This document shows, one piece after another, positions 21,747 to 29,911 of a stretch of 32,000 nucleotides of DNA. This stretch comes from an uncultured Chloroflexota bacterium. GTDB taxonomy: Bacteria > Chloroflexota > UBA4733. Under the pieces are notes generated by a model that saw nothing but the letters and a program-made list of their open reading frames with translations, searched no databases and was not told where the DNA came from. Every line of letters starts with the position of its first letter. Within the stretch, counting starts at the first letter, position 1. The translations under genes and the position numbers were made by a program. Location of the stretch: the NCBI GenBank assembly GCA_937967325.1, contig CALBSQ010000213.1, positions 18,634 to 50,633 on the forward strand, written 5' to 3'.

Positions 21747-22036
21747 CGTTGTGCTCCACGACCGCGCTGACCGGCCGGCTCGGCGCCACGCAGCAGGTCG
21801 TCCATCGCGTCTGGGGCGTCCAGCATCGCAGCTATCTCCTCTATGAGCGCCAGGATCTCACGCGCCTCCGTGGCGTCCAGCCGCTCGATGGCGGCGTCGG
21901 CATGCAGCAGCACGTAGTCGCCTGGAGTCAGCTCAGGTAACGCGGCACTCACCACCGACCGGACACGCCCGTCCACCCACACGTCGGCACGGTGACCGAC
22001 AACTCTGACGACCTCACGAGGAACGGCCAGGCACAT
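21743..22036 (-). CDS. hypC: Hydrogenase assembly chaperone HypC/HupF
   Basis: It starts MCLAVPREVVRV..., the invariant MCLxxP N-terminus, and is 97 aa long. The longer track ORF (to 22357) is an out-of-context 5' extension overlapping the protease gene. Confidence 0.85.
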   Translation of the reverse strand: MCLAVPREVVRVVGHRADVWVDGRVRSVVSAALPELTPGDYVLLHADAAIERLDATEAREILALIEEIAAMLDAPDAMDDLLRGAEPAGQRGRGAQR

Positions 22037-22553
22037 CGGCAGTCTCCCCTCCACCCGCCCTGTTGGGCATGGCCTCGATGAGCTCGTGAATCGTCCGTGC
22101 GGCCACCGCCACGGCCGCTTGAACCGGCGGGCTGAGTCCCTCGGAGAGCTCGTCGCAGTCGCGCGGTTGGCAGCCAACGAGAAGCGTGCGCTTGGGTAGC
22201 ACGTCGAGCGCCTTGGCCAGAACGAACACGCGCGACGGCTCGGCGAGATGCAGGTTGGAGAACGTGGACTGCCAATCACCGGCTGAAAGCGCGTGGGGGT
22301 TCGGCACGGACGGTTCCAGCACGAATACCGTCCCCGGCGCCGCGCCGCGATCGACACTGTCGACCACGATCAAGGTCTCGTATCCATCCATCAACTGGTG
22401 TACGATGCTGAGTCCGCCGATACCCGTCTCGATCAGGTCGATAACCGACGGCAGACGATCCTCAGCGGCCAGCCGGCGAGCAACGGCGACGCCGAAGCCG
22501 TCGTCGCCGCGGAGGACATTTCCCACCTCCGCGACGAGTACCCGCCCGCTCAC
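22014..22553 (-). CDS. [NiFe]-hydrogenase maturation endopeptidase (HyaD/HybD family), canonical copy
   Basis: GTG 22553 is preceded by GGAAGGAG and overlaps the upstream stop (GTGA). VLVAEVGNVLRGDDGFG gives the GNxxxGDDGxG motif, and VVDSVD and NLHLAEP supply the Asp and His metal ligands. Confidence 0.85.
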   Translation of the reverse strand: MSGRVLVAEVGNVLRGDDGFGVAVARRLAAEDRLPSVIDLIETGIGGLSIVHQLMDGYETLIVVDSVDRGAAPGTVFVLEPSVPNPHALSAGDWQSTFSNLHLAEPSRVFVLAKALDVLPKRTLLVGCQPRDCDELSEGLSPPVQAAVAVAARTIHELIEAMPNRAGGGETADVPGRSS

Positions 22554-23412
22554 GCCGTGGCTCCTTCCAGGAGGCCGATTCGCACGTCGTCGCCCTCGAC
22601 GGCGATGGGCATGACGCCGAGGCCAGCGCCGGGGCCGTCGAGTCGCTTGCCGCCGCGAAGGTCGAAGCGGCAGCCATGCCAGGGGCACTGGAGCACGGTT
22701 CCCTGTACGCGGCTGCCATCTAAGGGCAAGGGAGAGCCGGGGCAGGCGTTCCGGTAGGCGTACAGCTCACCTGCCAGGTTGGCAATCAACGCTCGCTCCC
22801 CTCCACGTCGAGGCCACGCACGCTGCCTGGCGGTAGCTCGGAGACTCGGAGCACCGTCCTCCAGCTCAGCCGCGGACGCGCCATCGCAACGTTTGAGAGT
22901 GGAATGAAGTTTGCGGGCGGGCTGGGTGGCGGCTCCAGCGCGTCCAGACGGATGAAGTCGGGAAGTCCTTCGTGGAGCGCCTGTTCGATCACGTGGTGAA
23001 GCGTCGCGGCCGAGCCATGGCAGCCATGGCAGGAACCGGACAAGCGCAGCGTCACCACGCCGGCTTCAGCCGCGACGACTTCCAGGCGGCCGCCGTGCGA
23101 CTCGATGTAGGGTCGCACGCCATCCAGTACCGCCTCCGCCCTGATCCGCTCGCCCCCCTCACCGAGGTCGTACATGTCGAACAACAGCCGGACTTCGGGG
23201 TCGTCGAGCGCCCGCCGTTGTAGCCCTGCCATCGTTAGCAGCTCGCCCAGCCGCCGCATTCCGGCGCGATGGACGATGTCGTCACACTGGAGCAGCTCGA
23301 AAGCGCGCTCCTTGACGGCCGCATCGGGGTGCTGCTCGAAGGCATGGACGAGGTCGTCCAGCCGGTCGACGGCAGCGACGAGCTCGGGCGGCAATTCGCG
23401 CTCAGGCTCCAT
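22550..23412 (-). CDS. NifU-like / Rieske-like Fe-S protein (HhyE-like?), split by a 1-nt frame change at 22786-22789
   Basis: ORF 22786..23412 contains a NifU C-terminal-type module (SHGGRLEVV...VTLRLSGSCHGCHGSAATL) and the first strands of a Rieske fold (SWRTVLRVSELPPGSVRGLDVEGSER). ORF 22550..22789 continues that fold (IANLAGELYAYRNACPG...LQCPWHGCRFDL). The junction reads cgTTGAttg. Confidence 0.7.
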
Positions 23413-23430: not shown

Positions 23431-23823
23431 TCAATGCGGGTGGGTCGGGCAAGGTTCCCCGGCATGCGCCGGGTCGTGGCAGAAGCAGCCCGGCGCGCAC
23501 TCGCCGTGCGCCGGACGGGTGAGCGAGGCGAACTCGTCACGGAAGCTTCGACCTCCCTCGGTCCTCCCCATCTCGGTCAAGCGATAGCGGCAAACCCGTC
23601 CTGGGACGCGCTCCAGGTATCCGCCAACGGCGAGCCGGCTCAGCTGGTGGGCCACCGCGCGGCCTGGTGAGGCGAGGAACTGGGCAAGCTGCGTGCTCCC
23701 GACCGCGTCCGCCAGCCCTTCACCCTGGAGCCAGTACATCGCTTGCAGTATCTCGTCCTGCCAGAAGAGCTCATTGAGCGCCGCGCGTCCGGAAGGCGGG
23801 GCCGGGTGAGAGGATCCGTTCAT
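23431..23823 (-). CDS. Hypothetical protein with a winged-helix-like body and a Cys/His-rich C-terminal tail
   Basis: ATG 23823 overlaps the upstream stop (ATGA). The tail is HGECAPGCFCHDPAHAGEPCPTHPH. The body (LAQFLASPGRAVAHQLSRLAVGGYLERV) looks wHTH-like. The track ORF's extra 26 N-terminal codons are Gly/Arg-rich and probably not translated. Confidence 0.6.
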   Translation of the reverse strand: MNGSSHPAPPSGRAALNELFWQDEILQAMYWLQGEGLADAVGSTQLAQFLASPGRAVAHQLSRLAVGGYLERVPGRVCRYRLTEMGRTEGGRSFRDEFASLTRPAHGECAPGCFCHDPAHAGEPCPTHPH

Positions 23824-24359
23824 ACCCGCACCTCCCGCTGCACCATCGCCTCGACCGCGTCCATGGCTACCGCCACCGGAGGGCTGAAGTCCGGTCCCCA
23901 CTCCTGGTCGCGCGGCTCGATCTCGATGATCTGCACCTGCGCCGGCAGCGCGCGGAAGTAGCCGGCGACCGCGAGCAGGTTGTCCAGGCTCACCACTCCC
24001 GTGACCGCCTCTGCCACCCGCGCCTGCACATCCTCAGCACTCAGAGCATCCGGAGCCCAGGTATAGCGGTCCACGCTGCCAGGCTCGCGACCGCGTGGCA
24101 CTGCCGCGAGAAAGAGCGCAGCGTCAAACGGCCCGTTGGCTTGCAGCCAATGGAGCGCCAGCACCGCGCCCAGGCTCAGATCCTCGACCTCCACGCCCGC
24201 CGGCCACTCCCGCGACCGCAGCCGTTCTGCCAACGCCGGCCCCGCCGACAGGTCGCGCAAGTTACTGTAGCCAATGCCGGCGACGAGCAGGCGCGGCGGC
24301 CGGGGAGCCGGGGAGCCGGGGAGCAAGGGAGACCTGGCGCGGACGGAGCGGCAGAGCAA
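23820..24359 (-). CDS. Divergent hydrogenase maturation protease-like protein (catalytic motifs degenerate); start uncertain
   Basis: LLVAGIGYSNLRDLSAGPALAERL... aligns with the HyaD/HybD N-terminus but lacks GDDG. The usual Asp and His positions are not recognisable. The only in-frame start is TTG 24359, it has no SD, and it lies inside the hairpin element. Confidence 0.55.
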   Translation of the reverse strand: MLCRSVRARSPLLPGSPAPRPPRLLVAGIGYSNLRDLSAGPALAERLRSREWPAGVEVEDLSLGAVLALHWLQANGPFDAALFLAAVPRGREPGSVDRYTWAPDALSAEDVQARVAEAVTGVVSLDNLLAVAGYFRALPAQVQIIEIEPRDQEWGPDFSPPVAVAMDAVEAMVQREVRV

Positions 24360-24454: not shown

Positions 24455-26331
24455 TCAGTCGTCCAGCTCGCAGGCGCAGGTGGTCACCTCGCGCGTGATG
24501 GTCCTGGGGCCGGCGTAGACGTGGGTCGTGCAGGGCATGCAAGGGTCGAAGCTGCGGATAGTGCGCAGGATGTCGATGGCCTTGAACTCCTCCGGGCTGT
24601 TGAATTGCTCGAGAATGGGCGTGTTCACGACCGCTTCTTCGTACGGTCCCGGCTGGCCGAAGGGGTCGACGGGAGAGGCGTTGGTGGTGGAGGGCGTGCA
24701 GATTTGGTAGTTTGTTATGACGCCGCGATCCATGGTGAGGTGATGGGCCAGGTAGCCGCGACCGGCGCCCCAGAAGCCCACGCCGATGCGCGGATCTCGC
24801 GGCACCTTGAAGTCGGCCGAGACGGCCGTCTCTCCCCTCTTCATCAAGTTGTAGCCGGCCAGCAGGTTGTTGAGGCAGACCAGCGCGGTGTAGGCCTGCG
24901 CGTAGGCACGGGCGCGGTTGCGCTCGATGGCGTTGCACTCGCTCGGCACCACCCATTCCAGCGTCATCTCCGGCAGCGCGCCCTTCGGCATGACCAGCCG
25001 CAGACTGGTCCCGGTCGACTCGATGAAGGGGTTGGCGGGCAGCTTCTTGGCGACGGCGGTGATCCACATGCGCGCGTAGGCGCCCGCCTCCACCACCTGG
25101 CGGTCCCAGCGCGGCGCCGTGCCCCAGGTGTATTTCTCCTTCCAGCTCCGACCCCCGGCCTGGGGAGCGTCTGCTTGTTCCAGGGATGATGGGGGCTCAG
25201 CGGGCTGCCCAGCGGGTCGGTGCGGTAGGGCGGCGTGCCGCCGGCCCAGCCTTCGTAGTAGGAGTGCTCGACGAACTCCTCCAGTCCCAGGTTGATGCTG
25301 TGCAGGCTCGTGGTCCTCAGCTCGCCGTCGATCATGACGCCCGGAGTCGCCCAGCGCCGCTCTCCCCAGTCGGCGGCGTGCTCGTAGCGGGCGTCGTAGG
25401 CCTCGTGGTGCTCCCAGATGCCGAGGTCGATTAGGTGGCGAGGCCGCACGCCCACGCGGTGGAAGCCGGGATTGGCTTGGTAGAGGAACTCCGAGATGTC
25501 GTCCCAGATGGTCACCATCCGCTTGGCGTGGTCCAGCAGCGTGAACAGGCGGATCTGATACTCGTTGAACGTCTGGGTGCTGATCGTCGTGCTGATGCCG
25601 CCCGGCACGATGGTCTGGGGGTGCGGGTACTTGCCCCAGACCAGGGAACACATCTCGCGCGCTCGGCGGGTGATCTCCAGCGCTTCCAGGTAGAGCGGGC
25701 CGGAGAGCGGATTGAGGGCGGTCATTAGGTCGGCCATGGTCCGGAAGCCGTGGACGGCGGCGTTCGGGGCCGCCGCCTGCTCCGCCTTGCCCCAGATCTC
25801 GGGATTGGTGGACCGGATGATAGCCTCGGAATAGTCGGGGCCGGCCAGCAGGAACAGGTGGAGCGGGTGGTCGTACAGGAACTCGGCCGCCTGCCCCAGG
25901 TTGCGCACCACGATCCCCATGGGCGGCGGCTGCACCCCGAAGGCCATCTCGATCGCTTCGGCGGCGCAGTTGGAGTGGACGCCGCCACAGACGCCGCAGG
26001 CGCGACTGGAGATGTAGATGGCGTCGCGTGGGTCACGTCCTTTCAGGATCACCTCGTAGCCGCGGAACAGCGTGGCCATGGAGTGCGCGTCGTGGACCGT
26101 GCGGTTCTCCAGGTCGACCACGGAGTGGAAGGCCAGGGCGCCGGCCACACGGGTGACCGGGTCGATGCTGACCTCCTTGATGTGGCCGTTCCTGGCCAGC
26201 AGCTCTTCGATGCGCTGCTGGCGGTCCTCCACCGCGCGGGTGCTCGTGTAGGTGTAGGGGTCGGTCGCGCCCTCTTTCAGGTGCGCTCGGCCTTGCTCGT
26301 CGAACTCGATGGGCAGGTTCTTGAAGCACAT
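24455..26331 (-). CDS. [NiFe]-hydrogenase large subunit (group 1h/5-like), with an apparent 1-nt frameshift near 25162-25165
   Basis: The N-terminal ORF 24964..26331 carries the L1 motif SSRACGVCGGVHSNC. The C-terminal ORF 24455..25651, in another frame, carries SFDPCMPCTTHVY plus a cleavable tail. The two frames meet at ...HPWNKQTLP | QAGGRSWKEKYTWGTAPRW. Adding one C to the C4 run of the mRNA gives a continuous 625-aa protein. Confidence 0.85.
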
Positions 26332-26344
26332 GGACCGACCCTCT

Positions 26345-26623
26345 CTACTGCGCCATTTCCGCCAGGCGACGCTCGGCCGAGCCGAGGCTAGCGGCGATCG
26401 CCTCGCCGCCAGCGGCGAGCTGCGTCAGCGCCGCCGCGGTGATCGGCAGCTCGGTCTTGAGGATGGCCGTCTCGCTCTCGATGGCGCGCACCCCCATGGC
26501 GATCTTGGCCAGCGAGCGATTGATCCCCTCCAGGGCGGTACGGATACGGCTCAGCATCGCGACCAGGGCGCCGAGGAAGAGCCAGAGCGCCAGCGTGGAG
26601 AGGATGGTCAGGATTAGCGGCAT
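26345..26623 (-). CDS. Small single-pass membrane protein, type B' of a four-gene paralog array
   Basis: 92 aa with an N-terminal TM (LILTILSTLALWLFLGALVAML) followed by a helical region (INRSLAKIAMGVRAIESETAIL...). It is a paralog of 26956..27261. The TGATG junction gives a 1-nt overlap with the upstream gene, and the gene ends 13 nt before the large-subunit start. Confidence 0.7.
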   Translation of the reverse strand: MPLILTILSTLALWLFLGALVAMLSRIRTALEGINRSLAKIAMGVRAIESETAILKTELPITAAALTQLAAGGEAIAASLGSAERRLAEMAQ

Positions 26624-26943
26624 CAGGGCGCCTCCCCTCTTGGGTTCTTCCGGGCGAGCGCCCGGCCCAGGCCGGCAAGTCGGCCCTCGATCGCCGACGT
26701 CGTACGATCCAGCACCTCCACCGCTTGCAGCAGCCGGCCGGCGGTCTGGAGGACGCCTTCGAGCTGGGCGATCGTCGCGGTGTTGCCGGCGATGCCCTGT
26801 GCCGCCGGGAGCGCCACCTTGGCCAGCCGGTTGATCTCGCGGGCATGACCGATGACGACGACGATGTTGGCGACGGCGATGACCGTGAGGATGAGGGCGA
26901 CGACGAGGGCAATCCAGCCGACGACGATAATGGCCGCGTCCAT
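26623..26943 (-). CDS. Small single-pass membrane protein, type A' of the paralog array
   Basis: 106 aa with an N-terminal TM, then AREINRLAKVALPAAQGIAGNTATIAQLEGVLQTAGRLL. It is a clear paralog of 27263..27574 (ANRIDRHALAVWEAGKGIAANTVQIWQLQ). Confidence 0.7.
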   Translation of the reverse strand: MDAAIIVVGWIALVVALILTVIAVANIVVVIGHAREINRLAKVALPAAQGIAGNTATIAQLEGVLQTAGRLLQAVEVLDRTTSAIEGRLAGLGRALARKNPRGEAP

Positions 26944-26955
26944 GGGCGCCCTCCC

Positions 26956-27261
26956 TCAGGCCACGCGTCTGACAGCGACTGCTTCGCCCATGACGGCCGC
27001 CAGATGCCCGTCGGTTGCTTCCAGGTGATCCGCGGTCGAGCTCAAGCCCCGCGCCACAGCGCCGAGCCCCGTGTTCAGCACGTTGATGTGTTGCGCCAGT
27101 GGGGCCGTCTGCCGCTCGACCAGTTGCACTCCCACTGCGATCCGGCTGAGGGTGCTCCCGATGCTCCAGAGGGCGACGGCGATGATGATCAGGCTCACCG
27201 CCAGCACCACGATCAGGACGACGGCGTAGATAATAGCGACCCAGGTCAAGACGGCGACCAT
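26956..27261 (-). CDS. Small single-pass membrane protein, type B of the paralog array
   Basis: 101 aa with an N-terminal TM (WVAIIYAVVLIVVLAVSLIIIAVAL), then STLSRIAVGVQLVERQTAPLAQHINVL..., paralogous to 26345..26623. Confidence 0.7.
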   Translation of the reverse strand: MVAVLTWVAIIYAVVLIVVLAVSLIIIAVALWSIGSTLSRIAVGVQLVERQTAPLAQHINVLNTGLGAVARGLSSTADHLEATDGHLAAVMGEAVAVRRVA

Positions 27262-27262
27262 G

Positions 27263-27574
27263 CTAGCCCTTTCCCTGGAGGGCCGCGGGCAGCCGCTCCA
27301 GTCGCTGGTCGATCGAGCCGGCCACCGCGGCGATGCCCTGGGCGGTCTGCAGGATCTCCGTGGCCGTGGCGTTGGTCTTCTGGAGCTGCCAGATCTGGAC
27401 GGTGTTGGCGGCGATGCCCTTGCCCGCCTCCCAAACCGCCAGCGCGTGGCGGTCGATGCGATTGGCGGCCGCGGCGATCCAGATCAGCAACAGGGCGACC
27501 ACGACGATGACGATTGCCGCGGCGCCCAGCGTGATCCACCAGACGGTGATAACGTCCATCGGATCATTTCCCAC
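27263..27574 (-). CDS. Small single-pass membrane protein, type A of the paralog array
   Basis: 103 aa from GTG 27574, with an alternative ATG at 27559. It has an N-terminal TM (VWWITLGAAAIVIVVVALLLIWIAAAA) followed by a helical region. It lies 24 nt after the small-subunit stop and 1 nt before the next gene. Confidence 0.7.
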   Translation of the reverse strand: MGNDPMDVITVWWITLGAAAIVIVVVALLLIWIAAAANRIDRHALAVWEAGKGIAANTVQIWQLQKTNATATEILQTAQGIAAVAGSIDQRLERLPAALQGKG

Positions 27575-27598: not shown

Positions 27599-28828
27599 CT
27601 ACTGCCTGACCTGCTTCGCAGCGGTGTTGCGCCGCTGCGCCGAATCGTAGCCGCGATGCACCAGCCGGTCGACGAAGGTCGTGCTCGAGGCGGCGCCCCA
27701 GCCGATCGGCGCCTGGCCGGTTTCGTCCCAGCGCACCTCGCGGTTGCGGTCGCGCTGGGTGATCCGGCGCAGCGGCCGAACGAAAGAGCCCACCAGGCGC
27801 GAGGCCGTGCCGGACACCATCGTGCCCGGCGGGGCCGTGTAGAAGGGCGCAAACTTATCGGGGAAGCCGGGCATGGTACAGCCGATGCAGGGAGCGCCGG
27901 TATTCATTCAACCGCCGACGTGGTTGATGGCGCCGCGGCTGGTGATGTTGCAGTTGACCACGGGTCCCCAGCAGCCGATCTCCACCAGGCACTCCTTGTC
28001 GCCGTACTCCTTGGCGAAGGAGCCCTCCTCGTAGTAGCCGGCGCGCAGGCACTGGCGGTGGACGGTCTCGCCGAAGAGCCAGGCCGGCCGCCCCAGGTCG
28101 TCGAACTCCGGCGAGGGGCCGATGCCTTGCAGGAAGAGCAGGATGGCGGCGACCGTTTCGGTGAAGTTGTCGCCGATGGGCGAGCAGCCGGGCACGTTCA
28201 CCACCGGCAGCCCCAGCGCCGAGCGGTAATCCCGTCCCAGGAAGTCCATCATGCTCATGGCACCGGTGGGATTGCCGTAGGCTGCCGGGACGCCGCCCCA
28301 GGTAGCGCAGGTGCCGATGGCGATCACGGCAGCCGCGCCGGGCGCCAGACGCTGGACCCATTCCGCGGACGGGATCTGGCGCTTCCCGCCGGTTGCCGGG
28401 TTCTCCTCCTCGCCCACCGCCGACCAGTAGCCGCCCTGTGGCCCGGCCTTGCTCTCGTCGGCGATGGAGCCCTCGTAGACGATGACGTAGGGGTCTCCCA
28501 GCTCACCGCGCCAGGCCCGGCGCATCGGCTCGACGAAGGCGTCGCCGGCCTCGAGCTGGATGGCGGTGTGATGCAGGTAGACGATCGGCACGCCGGGGAT
28601 GGAGCCGGTGAGCAGGCTCTCCACGGACGGCTGTGTGGCGCTCAGCACGGCGATGGAGCAACCGTCACAGCTCATGCCGGCCAGCCAGAAGACGTGTACG
28701 CGCTCGAACGGACCCAGCTTCGTCGCCGGACCTGCCTTGGCGGCGACGATATTGGCCCATTCCTCCTGACTGATGCCGGCCACGTTGCCGGCCTGGGAGA
28801 TCGGGGGCATCGGCTCAGCAACGGTCAT
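27599..28828 (-). CDS. [NiFe]-hydrogenase small subunit (no Tat signal), interrupted by one in-frame TGA at 27908-27910
   Basis: ORF 27908..28828 carries the proximal-cluster region (FWLAGMSCDGCS, GTCATWGG, PGCSP) and the distal/medial region (HRQCLRAG...ECLVEIGCWGPVVNCN...HVGG). After the TGA, ORF 27599..27907 continues in the same frame with MNTGAPCIGCTMPGFPDKFAPFY, which is the conserved CIGC end of the same domain. The SD AAGGAGGG precedes ATG 28828. Confidence 0.85.
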
Positions 28829-28861: not shown

Positions 28862-29665
28862 TCACACGCCGGCGGGGATCGGAAGCCCTAGCCGCTCGAC
28901 CAGTTGGTCGGCGAGGTCCTGGACTGCTGCCACCGCCGGCGCGTTGGCGTCGTGGTCGATGATCGCCCGGCCGAGGTGGTCCGCCTCGGTGACGCGCTCA
29001 TCAAATGGCACTTGTCCGACGATGTCGAAGCCGCGGCGCGCGCAGTACTCGCGGAGCGCCGCCTCATCGCGGCCGTCGCGCACCTTATTGGCAACGACCC
29101 AGACCCGCTCCAGACCGAGCTCTTGAGCAAGGGGCACCATGCGCCCTGCCGTTTCCAGCGAGCGGTAGTAGGGCTCGGTCACGACCAGCAGCACGCCGAC
29201 GTTGCGCACCGTGCCGCGCGTGAGGTGTTCGATCGAGGCTTCCATATCGAGGATGGTGACGTCGCTGGGCCGCTGTGCCGGCAGCTCACCCATGACGCCG
29301 CGTACCGCGGCGTGCTGTCCGCAGAGTCAACCCTTGCCCGCGCCGAGCAGGCCCGTCATCATGAGCACGCCGACGTTATCGGGTCCGTGGGTCCCGTACT
29401 CTCCCAGCACTTCCTCGAACGGCCTGGTGAGGTGCAGCGCGTGATGCCCATCGGCGTCGGCGCGCTCCTCCAGGATGTCGTCCCGGGGTACCCGCTTGAG
29501 GCTATGCAGTTGGTCGGGTGTCAGGCCGAGCGCCGTGGCAAGGTTCGGGTTCGGGTCGTCGTCCAGGGCGTTGACGCAGTAGCCGCGGCGGGCGAGCACA
29601 CGGGCCAGCCTCGCCGCGACGGTCGTCTTTCCCGAGCCGCCTTTGCCGGAGAGTCCAATGCGCAC
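28862..29665 (-). CDS. CooC-type (MinD/ParA-family) nickel-insertion ATPase, interrupted by one in-frame TGA at 29327-29329
   Basis: GTG 29665 is preceded by GAAGGAAG. The deviant Walker A is GLSGKGGSGKTT. After the TGA the same frame continues LCGQHAAVRGVMGEL...ILDMEASIEHLTRGT...VVANKVRD, matching the CooC pattern on both sides of the stop. Track ORFs 29327..29710 and 28862..29293 are the two halves. Confidence 0.8.
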
Positions 29666-29911
29666 TAGTTCACTTCCTTCGCTGACGCTGTGGAGTCCGG
29701 TCGACCACATCTTGGCCGGCTGCGGACCCGTGGCGATCGCGCGCCTGGCCAGACGCTCCTTCCTCGACGACGACGGAGGGCAGGCCGCAAGTGCTCAGCC
29801 CTTAGTACATCGGAACGAACAGCAGGGCAAGGTAAACGCTCTTGGCGGGAGCACCATGGATCTCCGTGACATGCCCGGTAGCAGACCATCTAGGGCGACC
29901 GTACGGCCAGC

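Follow-up and report, generated by a model that had tools for sequence, protein, structure and literature searches.

The stretch of DNA analysed here, which we call the window, is 32,000 nucleotides long and comes from an uncultured member of the Chloroflexota. On its minus strand lies a [NiFe]-hydrogenase operon in which a gene for a CooC/CbiA-like maturation ATPase (28862..29710) precedes those for a HylS-like small subunit (28828..27599) and a HylL-like large subunit (24455..26331, read from 26331). The 1277-nt gap between hylS and hylL is filled by four short open reading frames on the same strand, in the order A (27263..27574; 103 residues when read from the GTG at 27574), B (26956..27261; 101 residues), A' (26623..26943; 106 residues) and B' (26345..26623; 92 residues). 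Downstream of hylL, again on the minus strand, is an accessory block (22014..23412) which specifies a NifU-like protein (23412..22786), a Rieske protein resembling HylE (22789..22550) [PF00355, E=1e-8] and a HycI/HupD-type maturation protease (22553..22014) [PF01750 HycI, E=8.9e-15].

From the small-subunit gene through A, B, A' and B' to the large-subunit gene the successive spacers are 24, 1, 12, -1 and 13 nt, and a purine-rich motif resembling GGAGG or GAGGG is found a few bases 5' of B, A', B' and the large-subunit gene. An earlier note on this DNA had given these coordinates and spacings for the four ORFs, and both are exact, apart from some doubt about where A starts. Its homologues and the public gene calls begin at an ATG at 27559 (MDVITVWW; 98 residues) and not at the GTG, which makes this ATG the more likely true start. 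The hydrogenase had also been described as lacking a Tat signal, and the N-terminus of the small subunit, as read from its translation, indeed carries no twin-arginine motif.

All four proteins possess an N-terminal hydrophobic stretch, for which the maximal mean Kyte-Doolittle hydropathy over 19 residues is 2.4–3.4. It is preceded by a tail of 2–10 residues containing neither Lys nor Arg and followed directly by one to three Lys or Arg residues; based upon the positive-inside rule this pattern of charges suggests an N-out, C-in topology, which would place the C-terminal part of each protein in the cytoplasm. Past the membrane segment the hydropathy of both families described below varies with a period of 3.4–3.5 residues at four to five times the median power, which is a heptad signature, as predicted for helices that pack into bundles. 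An AlphaFold2 monomer model of A, calculated with a 50-sequence alignment, consists of a single continuous helix (residues 5–100, pLDDT 91), while that of B' has helices at residues 2–52 and 59–91 with a break at a conserved proline between them (pLDDT 82). Hydropathy, charge pattern and structure prediction agree in showing each of the four as one predicted N-terminal membrane helix followed by a predicted heptad-periodic cytoplasmic helix of about 65 residues, much as the single hydrophobic helix and helix-forming tail had been read at the outset. The profile searches which the earlier note had proposed as a check placed none of the four proteins above the cut-off of any Pfam or NCBIfam family, the only matches being weak ones to DUF948, RDD and similar entries. 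In a profile search of all PDB chains (E<=10) the best matches of the four were designed coiled coils and adhesin fragments, and Foldseek with the B' model returned generic or designed coiled coils only, all with E>3, and no solved homologue.

The four ORFs are genuine genes. Close homologues of A (97) and B' (34) are present in the protein collection, all of them unnamed or annotated as "hypothetical," and a profile of A retrieved 525 representative clusters (E<=1e-3) among 1.84 billion proteins, nearly all of 90–120 residues. A profile of a related subfamily bearing three cysteines retrieved at least 1631 clusters, and among the best 120 of these the named ones were all Gemmatimonadota-like. 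Synteny of the cassette is kept in dozens of genomes, and the dN/dS ratios of the four genes are 0.08–0.26 in the closest genome pairs and below 1 in all comparisons. The conservation upon which the earlier note had made its proposal depend is thus evident in homologues, in synteny and in selection.

The alternation of two types which that note had perceived is also borne out. A and A' are 34% identical over their full length [BLASTP E=4e-9], B and B' are less closely related [E=2e-5], and pairwise BLASTP between A and B was not significant. When four-, five- and two-gene cassettes (F4, F5 and F2, with p denoting the position within the cassette) were compared by hhalign, F4p1, F4p3, F5p1, F5p2, F5p4 and F2p1 grouped as the A family at 96–99.8% probability, and F4p2, F4p4, F5p3, F5p5 and F2p2 as the B family at 97–99.3%. 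Similarity between A and B profiles is weaker, yet it extends from end to end of the proteins (up to 95% probability, E=2e-8), a resemblance which hints at one ancient ancestor for both families and to which compositional bias could contribute.

GTDB species genomes were scanned with the large subunit, at least 551 of them containing relatives, and the best 80 loci were analysed. In the window and 12 other Chloroflexota loci the distance between the small- and large-subunit genes is about 1.25–1.36 kb and is occupied by four genes in the order A-B-A'-B'. In three Thermomicrobiales/Chloroflexia loci it is about 0.7–0.9 kb and holds a single A-B pair, and in 28 loci it is about 1.5–2.2 kb and holds five genes in the order A-A-B-A-B; the hosts of these five-gene loci are Gemmatimonadota, Planctomycetota, Armatimonadota, Acidimicrobiia, Polyangiaceae and other Chloroflexota. 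In the Acidobacteriota hylS and hylL are adjacent, and the four-gene cassette, arranged as in the window, is found upstream of hylS. A cassette of two, four or five genes was present in every locus with enough upstream DNA, the loci lacking one being on truncated contigs, and its synteny with HylS and HylL spans at least eight phyla among the best 80 loci. In the survey of gene neighbourhoods that had been recommended for this DNA, A/B cassettes of two, four or five genes thus co-occur strictly with this type of hydrogenase, and the four genes are shown to be passed on as a unit with those for HylS and HylL.

Each position of the four-gene cassette is homologous to a position of the five-gene cassettes (hhalign probability 98–99.8%). 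The best matches pair A with position 2 [F4p1–F5p2, E=1.6e-27], B with position 5 [F4p2–F5p5, E=3.5e-20], A' with position 4 [F4p3–F5p4, E=3.4e-16] and B' with position 3 [F4p4–F5p3, E=3.9e-20], so that the B-type genes have exchanged places between the two forms. The earlier suggestion that an A-B pair had been duplicated is right as to paralogy, while a single duplication is an oversimplification, since the interchange of B and B' and the existence of two- and five-gene forms imply a more complex history. Nor is a fixed stoichiometry implied, for the number of genes varies (two, four or five) and the order of B and B' is swapped.

A module of this kind has been described before, although the earlier note knew of no such description. 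The group 1l [NiFe]-hydrogenase (Hyl) was defined in a preprint by Ortiz et al. (bioRxiv 10.1101/2020.08.06.239558), of which Supplementary Note 1 describes five short single-pass proteins, HylTM1-5, encoded between HylS and HylL and proposed to act as a membrane anchor. PMC9561532 repeats this description, and PMC13554262 presents an AlphaFold3 model with tube-like HylTM scaffolds. The HylTM1-5 proteins treated in these three sources are those of Hymenobacter roseosalivarius and of Antarctic soil MAGs. According to the preprint, all MAG hydrogenases of the Mackay Glacier study belong to group 1h or 1l; the group 1l small subunit is there said to have a four-Cys proximal cluster where group 1h has Asp, and a C-terminal extension of HylS by about 100 residues relative to group 1h has been reported.

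Several features of the window fit group 1l. Its large subunit is 61–78% identical to relatives among the best 80 loci, which include the Mackay Glacier MAGs MGR_bin229, 109, 96, 9 and 15, and it possesses the conserved N-terminal MCFKNLPI extension. For both subunits the closest solved structure is a group 1h enzyme, 5AA5, and in the phmmer alignment the proximal motif of the small subunit reads CDGCS versus CDGDS in 5AA5. The downstream block includes, as Hyl clusters do, genes for a Rieske protein and a HycI-type protease. HylS of the window is 409 residues long versus 351 for 5AA5, and about 30 of its C-terminal residues extend past the aligned region, versus the approximately 100 reported. 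We consider it likely that the four ORFs encode the HylTM subunits of a group 1l hydrogenase in an A-B-A'-B' form, and that they would form a bundled stalk upon which HylSL docks. The link to HylTM1-5 is indirect, being drawn from the MAG relatives, the tri-cysteine motif discussed below and gene order.

The module is, then, one already published as HylTM1-5, and the window holds a four-gene, cysteine-free case of it. Both sets consist of short single-pass proteins whose genes accompany those for HylS, HylL, a Rieske protein and an endopeptidase, the hydrogenase being in either case cytosolic and 5AA5-like, and the anchor or scaffold role proposed for both is the same. They differ in that the window has four genes and not five, the additional leading A-type paralogue being absent, that it has no CPGCPxC motif, and that the orthologues of B and B' stand in swapped positions. 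The division into A and B families, the two-gene form and the placement upstream of HylS were not found in the accessible text, figures (e.g. Fig. S5) aside, of bioRxiv 10.1101/2020.08.06.239558, PMC9561532 or PMC13554262. What is added here is thus the recognition of the two families, of cassettes of two, four and five genes, of their location either between the subunit genes or upstream of that for the small subunit, and of the cysteine-free four-gene form.

Two other hydrogenases invite comparison. HucM is a helical oligomeric stalk which links the cytosolic, high-affinity group 2a enzyme Huc to the membrane and quinone (PDB 7UTD, 7UUR, 7UUS, 8DQV). It is a single protein, whereas the window encodes a set of N-terminally anchored paralogues. 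The two had been thought unrelated in sequence, and in agreement with this no Huc chain appeared among the PDB profile matches of the four proteins even at E<=10; the analogy would be functional only. In the group 1e (Isp-type) hydrogenases the genes for Isp1 and Isp2 are also situated between those for the small and large subunits, and their products, a multi-helix haem-b protein (Isp1) and an Hdr-like Fe-S protein (Isp2), connect the enzyme to the membrane. Nothing haem- or Hdr-like was detected by Pfam or NCBIfam in the ORFs of the window.

Both hydrogenase subunit genes of the window carry disabling lesions, which the earlier note had not mentioned; the four genes between them are intact. 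HylS is interrupted by an in-frame TGA (27910..27908) at a conserved Cys ligand of an Fe-S cluster, a codon which is TGC or TGT in 49 of 50 homologous loci. In HylL a 1-nt deletion shifts the frame, one more base being needed in a run of five G residues (25156..25152). Identical DNA with both lesions is present in three public assemblies, so that an isolated error of assembly is not the explanation, though the samples may be related to one another. With both subunits affected the function of the hydrogenase in this strain is uncertain, and the enzyme may be inactive here, perhaps having been inactivated recently. Insertion of selenocysteine at the TGA of HylS is unlikely, as this codon was found in only one of the 50 loci and is followed by no SECIS-like hairpin. 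The gene for the CooC-like ATPase also possesses an in-frame TGA (29329..29327), at the first Cys of a CxC motif, with a hairpin after it (29311..29297), and its product looks like a candidate selenoprotein.

Several other explanations of the four genes were weighed. At about 68% G+C many long spurious ORFs arise, as is seen in the window, and the four might have been chance open frames in the spacer; this reading, which we would grant practically no probability, is refuted by conservation and selection, that is, by the numbers of homologues and clusters given above, by the gene order kept across phyla, by dN/dS ratios well below 1 and also by confident AlphaFold2 models. We think it very improbable that they are generic small membrane proteins of the DUF948 type which came to lie in this operon by chance and have no tie to the hydrogenase. 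The earlier note had, with low confidence, been reminded of DUF948, and there is a likeness, in that an Ala/Leu/Gln-rich helical region also follows an N-terminal membrane helix in that family. Weak matches to it (PF06103) do recur: B scored E=0.0023, and among relatives 12 of 57 of the B type and 3 of 71 of the A type reached E<0.01, the best with E=6.7e-4, matches about as weak as that of B. The score of B, however, was 18.5 bits as against a gathering cut-off of 37.2 bits, and A, A' and B' gave no match to the family in the Pfam scan. No protein reached the cut-off, so that membership was rejected and only a resemblance is left, and the genomic context of the window's cassette is, in contrast to that of DUF948 proteins, specific to hydrogenase, with strict HylS/HylL synteny over at least eight phyla.

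More weight is due to two proposals that concern the hydrogenase itself. The proteins might be redox-active, passing electrons by way of an Fe-S cluster or other cofactor, or forming a site of quinone reduction, instead of being a passive tether. The preprint (bioRxiv 10.1101/2020.08.06.239558) speculates that a tri-cysteine motif in one HylTM binds an Fe-S cluster, and a CPGCPxC sequence does end the position-2 protein in 20 of the 28 five-gene cassettes; this protein matches the published tri-cysteine HylTM, and with numbering begun at hylL it would be "HylTM4." Furthermore, polar Asn/Thr pairs (IA.NT, L..TN) are invariant in the A-type helices and could line a binding site. Against this, A, B, A' and B' contain not one cysteine, cysteine is likewise missing from every two-gene cassette and from nearly all of the 13 four-gene ones, no conserved pair of His residues was seen in the proteins of either form, and no cofactor-binding family was detected in the four proteins by Pfam or NCBIfam. 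The tri-cysteine motif is evidently dispensable in the lineage of the window, to judge from these proteins, and the lack of cysteine and of a detectable cofactor motif makes a passive tether or conduit likelier than an Fe-S relay; a redox role seems to us improbable. Only slightly less so is the idea that the four are factors of assembly or maturation, or membrane-targeting chaperones, which act transiently in biogenesis and form no part of the finished enzyme. Maturation genes abound in the operon (those for the CooC-like ATPase, the NifU-like protein, HycI and HypC), the cassette lies outside the pair of subunit genes in the Acidobacteriota, and the number of its genes is flexible, all of which would suit such factors. 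Four or five paralogous long helices with heptad periodicity, however, are better suited to a stable bundle, and the position of the cassette and its translational coupling (a 1-nt gap and a 1-nt overlap) suggest an output matched to that of the structural subunits. The AlphaFold3 model of PMC13554262 likewise has HylTM as a scaffold, and we regard an assembly role as unlikely.

The best reading of these models and comparisons is that HylTM would serve as a membrane anchor or stalk of the mature complex. The earlier note had arrived at a hetero-oligomeric helical anchor for a cytosolic, Tat-less hydrogenase, and the literature proposes the same. The A and B helices would together form a hetero-oligomeric bundle, a coiled-coil stalk or tube, in line with the AlphaFold3 model of the five-gene form. 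Upon this the cytosolic, Tat-less HylSL would dock at the membrane, probably by way of a region close to the C-terminal part of HylS and the distal cluster, and in this way electrons derived from H2 could be delivered to the quinone pool or to a partner in the membrane.

A broader picture can be put forward only tentatively, and taken as a whole it is less likely than not to be right. HylTM might be a modular stalk built of two families, A and B, the copy number of which has been reset repeatedly (A-B, A-B-A'-B' and A0-A-B'-A'-B), in a cassette that is mobile with respect to hylS and hylL and for which the tri-cysteine motif is dispensable. It would then act as a HucM-like structural tether or as a conduit for quinone and not as an Fe-S relay, and would be an independently evolved means of wiring a cytosolic oxidiser of atmospheric H2 to the respiratory chain. 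Group 1l hydrogenases have been reported as the dominant oxidisers of atmospheric H2 in Antarctic desert soils. The comparative picture of HylTM given here could guide structural and genetic work, for which the A-B pair and the cysteine-less four-gene set, as the simplest natural versions of the module, are attractive candidates for reconstitution.

Upstream of hylS, the gene for the hydrogenase small subunit, lies a gene on the minus strand specifying a CooC/CbiA-like ATPase (29710..28862), the open reading frame of which is divided by an in-frame TGA (29329..29327) where the CxC metal motif of the protein has its first cysteine ('GAGKG-TGA-LCGQH'). Among the homologous hydrogenase loci compared (handles beginning with L) the same codon is TGA in the Chloroflexota loci L004, L007, L008, L009, L013 and L018 and in the Gemmatimonadota loci L044 and L076; it is TGC in L010, L011, L012, L015 and L064. 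All of the TGA loci possess a stable hairpin (29311..29297 in the window; −9 to −19 kcal/mol) starting approximately 17 nt 3' of the TGA, and among them one compensatory change, G:C to A:T, is seen in the hairpin. Of the five TGC loci, four have no such hairpin (−3 to −5 kcal/mol); the fifth, L064, folds at −10.9 kcal/mol, but through another stem, which lies at the 5' end of the folded segment. Based upon this alternation of selenocysteine and cysteine codons, together with the SECIS-like element, the sequences suggest a selenoprotein form of the hydrogenase maturation ATPase, for which no description was found in a literature search.

The small subunit gene itself contains an in-frame TGA (27910..27908, minus strand), which takes the place of a conserved Cys that ligates an Fe-S cluster ('INHVGG*MNTGAPCIGC'); this codon is TGC or TGT in 49 of 50 homologous loci. 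One might read this TGA, too, as selenocysteine, a reading that we regard as less likely than a nonsense mutation. Since no SECIS-like hairpin was found 3' of it, the hylS TGA is probably a nonsense mutation.

The large subunit gene, hylL, carries a 1-nt deletion (25164..25145, minus strand, with a run of five G at 25156..25152) at the junction of 'HPWNKQTLPRPG' and 'GRSWKEKYTW', which breaks the gene up into two ORFs, 26331..24964 and 25651..24455. Identical DNA, bearing both the hylL deletion and the hylS TGA, is found in three public assemblies (JGI 3300022557, JGI 3300007982 and ENA ERZ27245795). HylL also possesses an N-terminal extension (26331..26190, minus strand) of about 45 aa past the region aligned with the group 1h [NiFe]-hydrogenase structure 5AA5, beginning 'MCFKNLPIEFD'. 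The patterns MCFKNLPI and WKEKYTW jointly matched some 600 stretches across GTDB genomes, both patterns pooled. Directly 3' of hylL are two ORFs (24359..23431, minus strand) of approximately 168 and 130 aa as called in locus L001, or 179 and 156 aa as longest ORFs; neither has a Pfam match, and their position is conserved in L004.

The cassette of small single-pass membrane (TM) protein genes accompanying hylS and hylL comprises two, four or five genes. At position 2 of the five-gene cassettes a C-terminal tri-cysteine tail, 'HAExCPGCPxCVLGPxW', occurs in 20 of 28 loci (L041–L085), being missing in L052, L053, L057, L060, L069, L071, L077 and L085; it was seen in no four-gene or two-gene cassette among the loci compared. 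The cassettes of L057, L060 and L075 contain extra DNA. In L057 and L060 the second and third TM genes are 400–550 nt apart, a gap that may hold a sixth ORF, and in L075 approximately 3 kb separates the last TM gene from hylL.

In the Acidobacteriota loci L020–L031, L038–L040 and L051, hylS adjoins hylL and the four-gene A-B-A'-B' cassette is located upstream of hylS, in several cases with 0.9–2 kb of other genes between the two. Judged from this gene order, the finding of A-B-A'-B' upstream of hylS indicates that the cassette moves as a unit.
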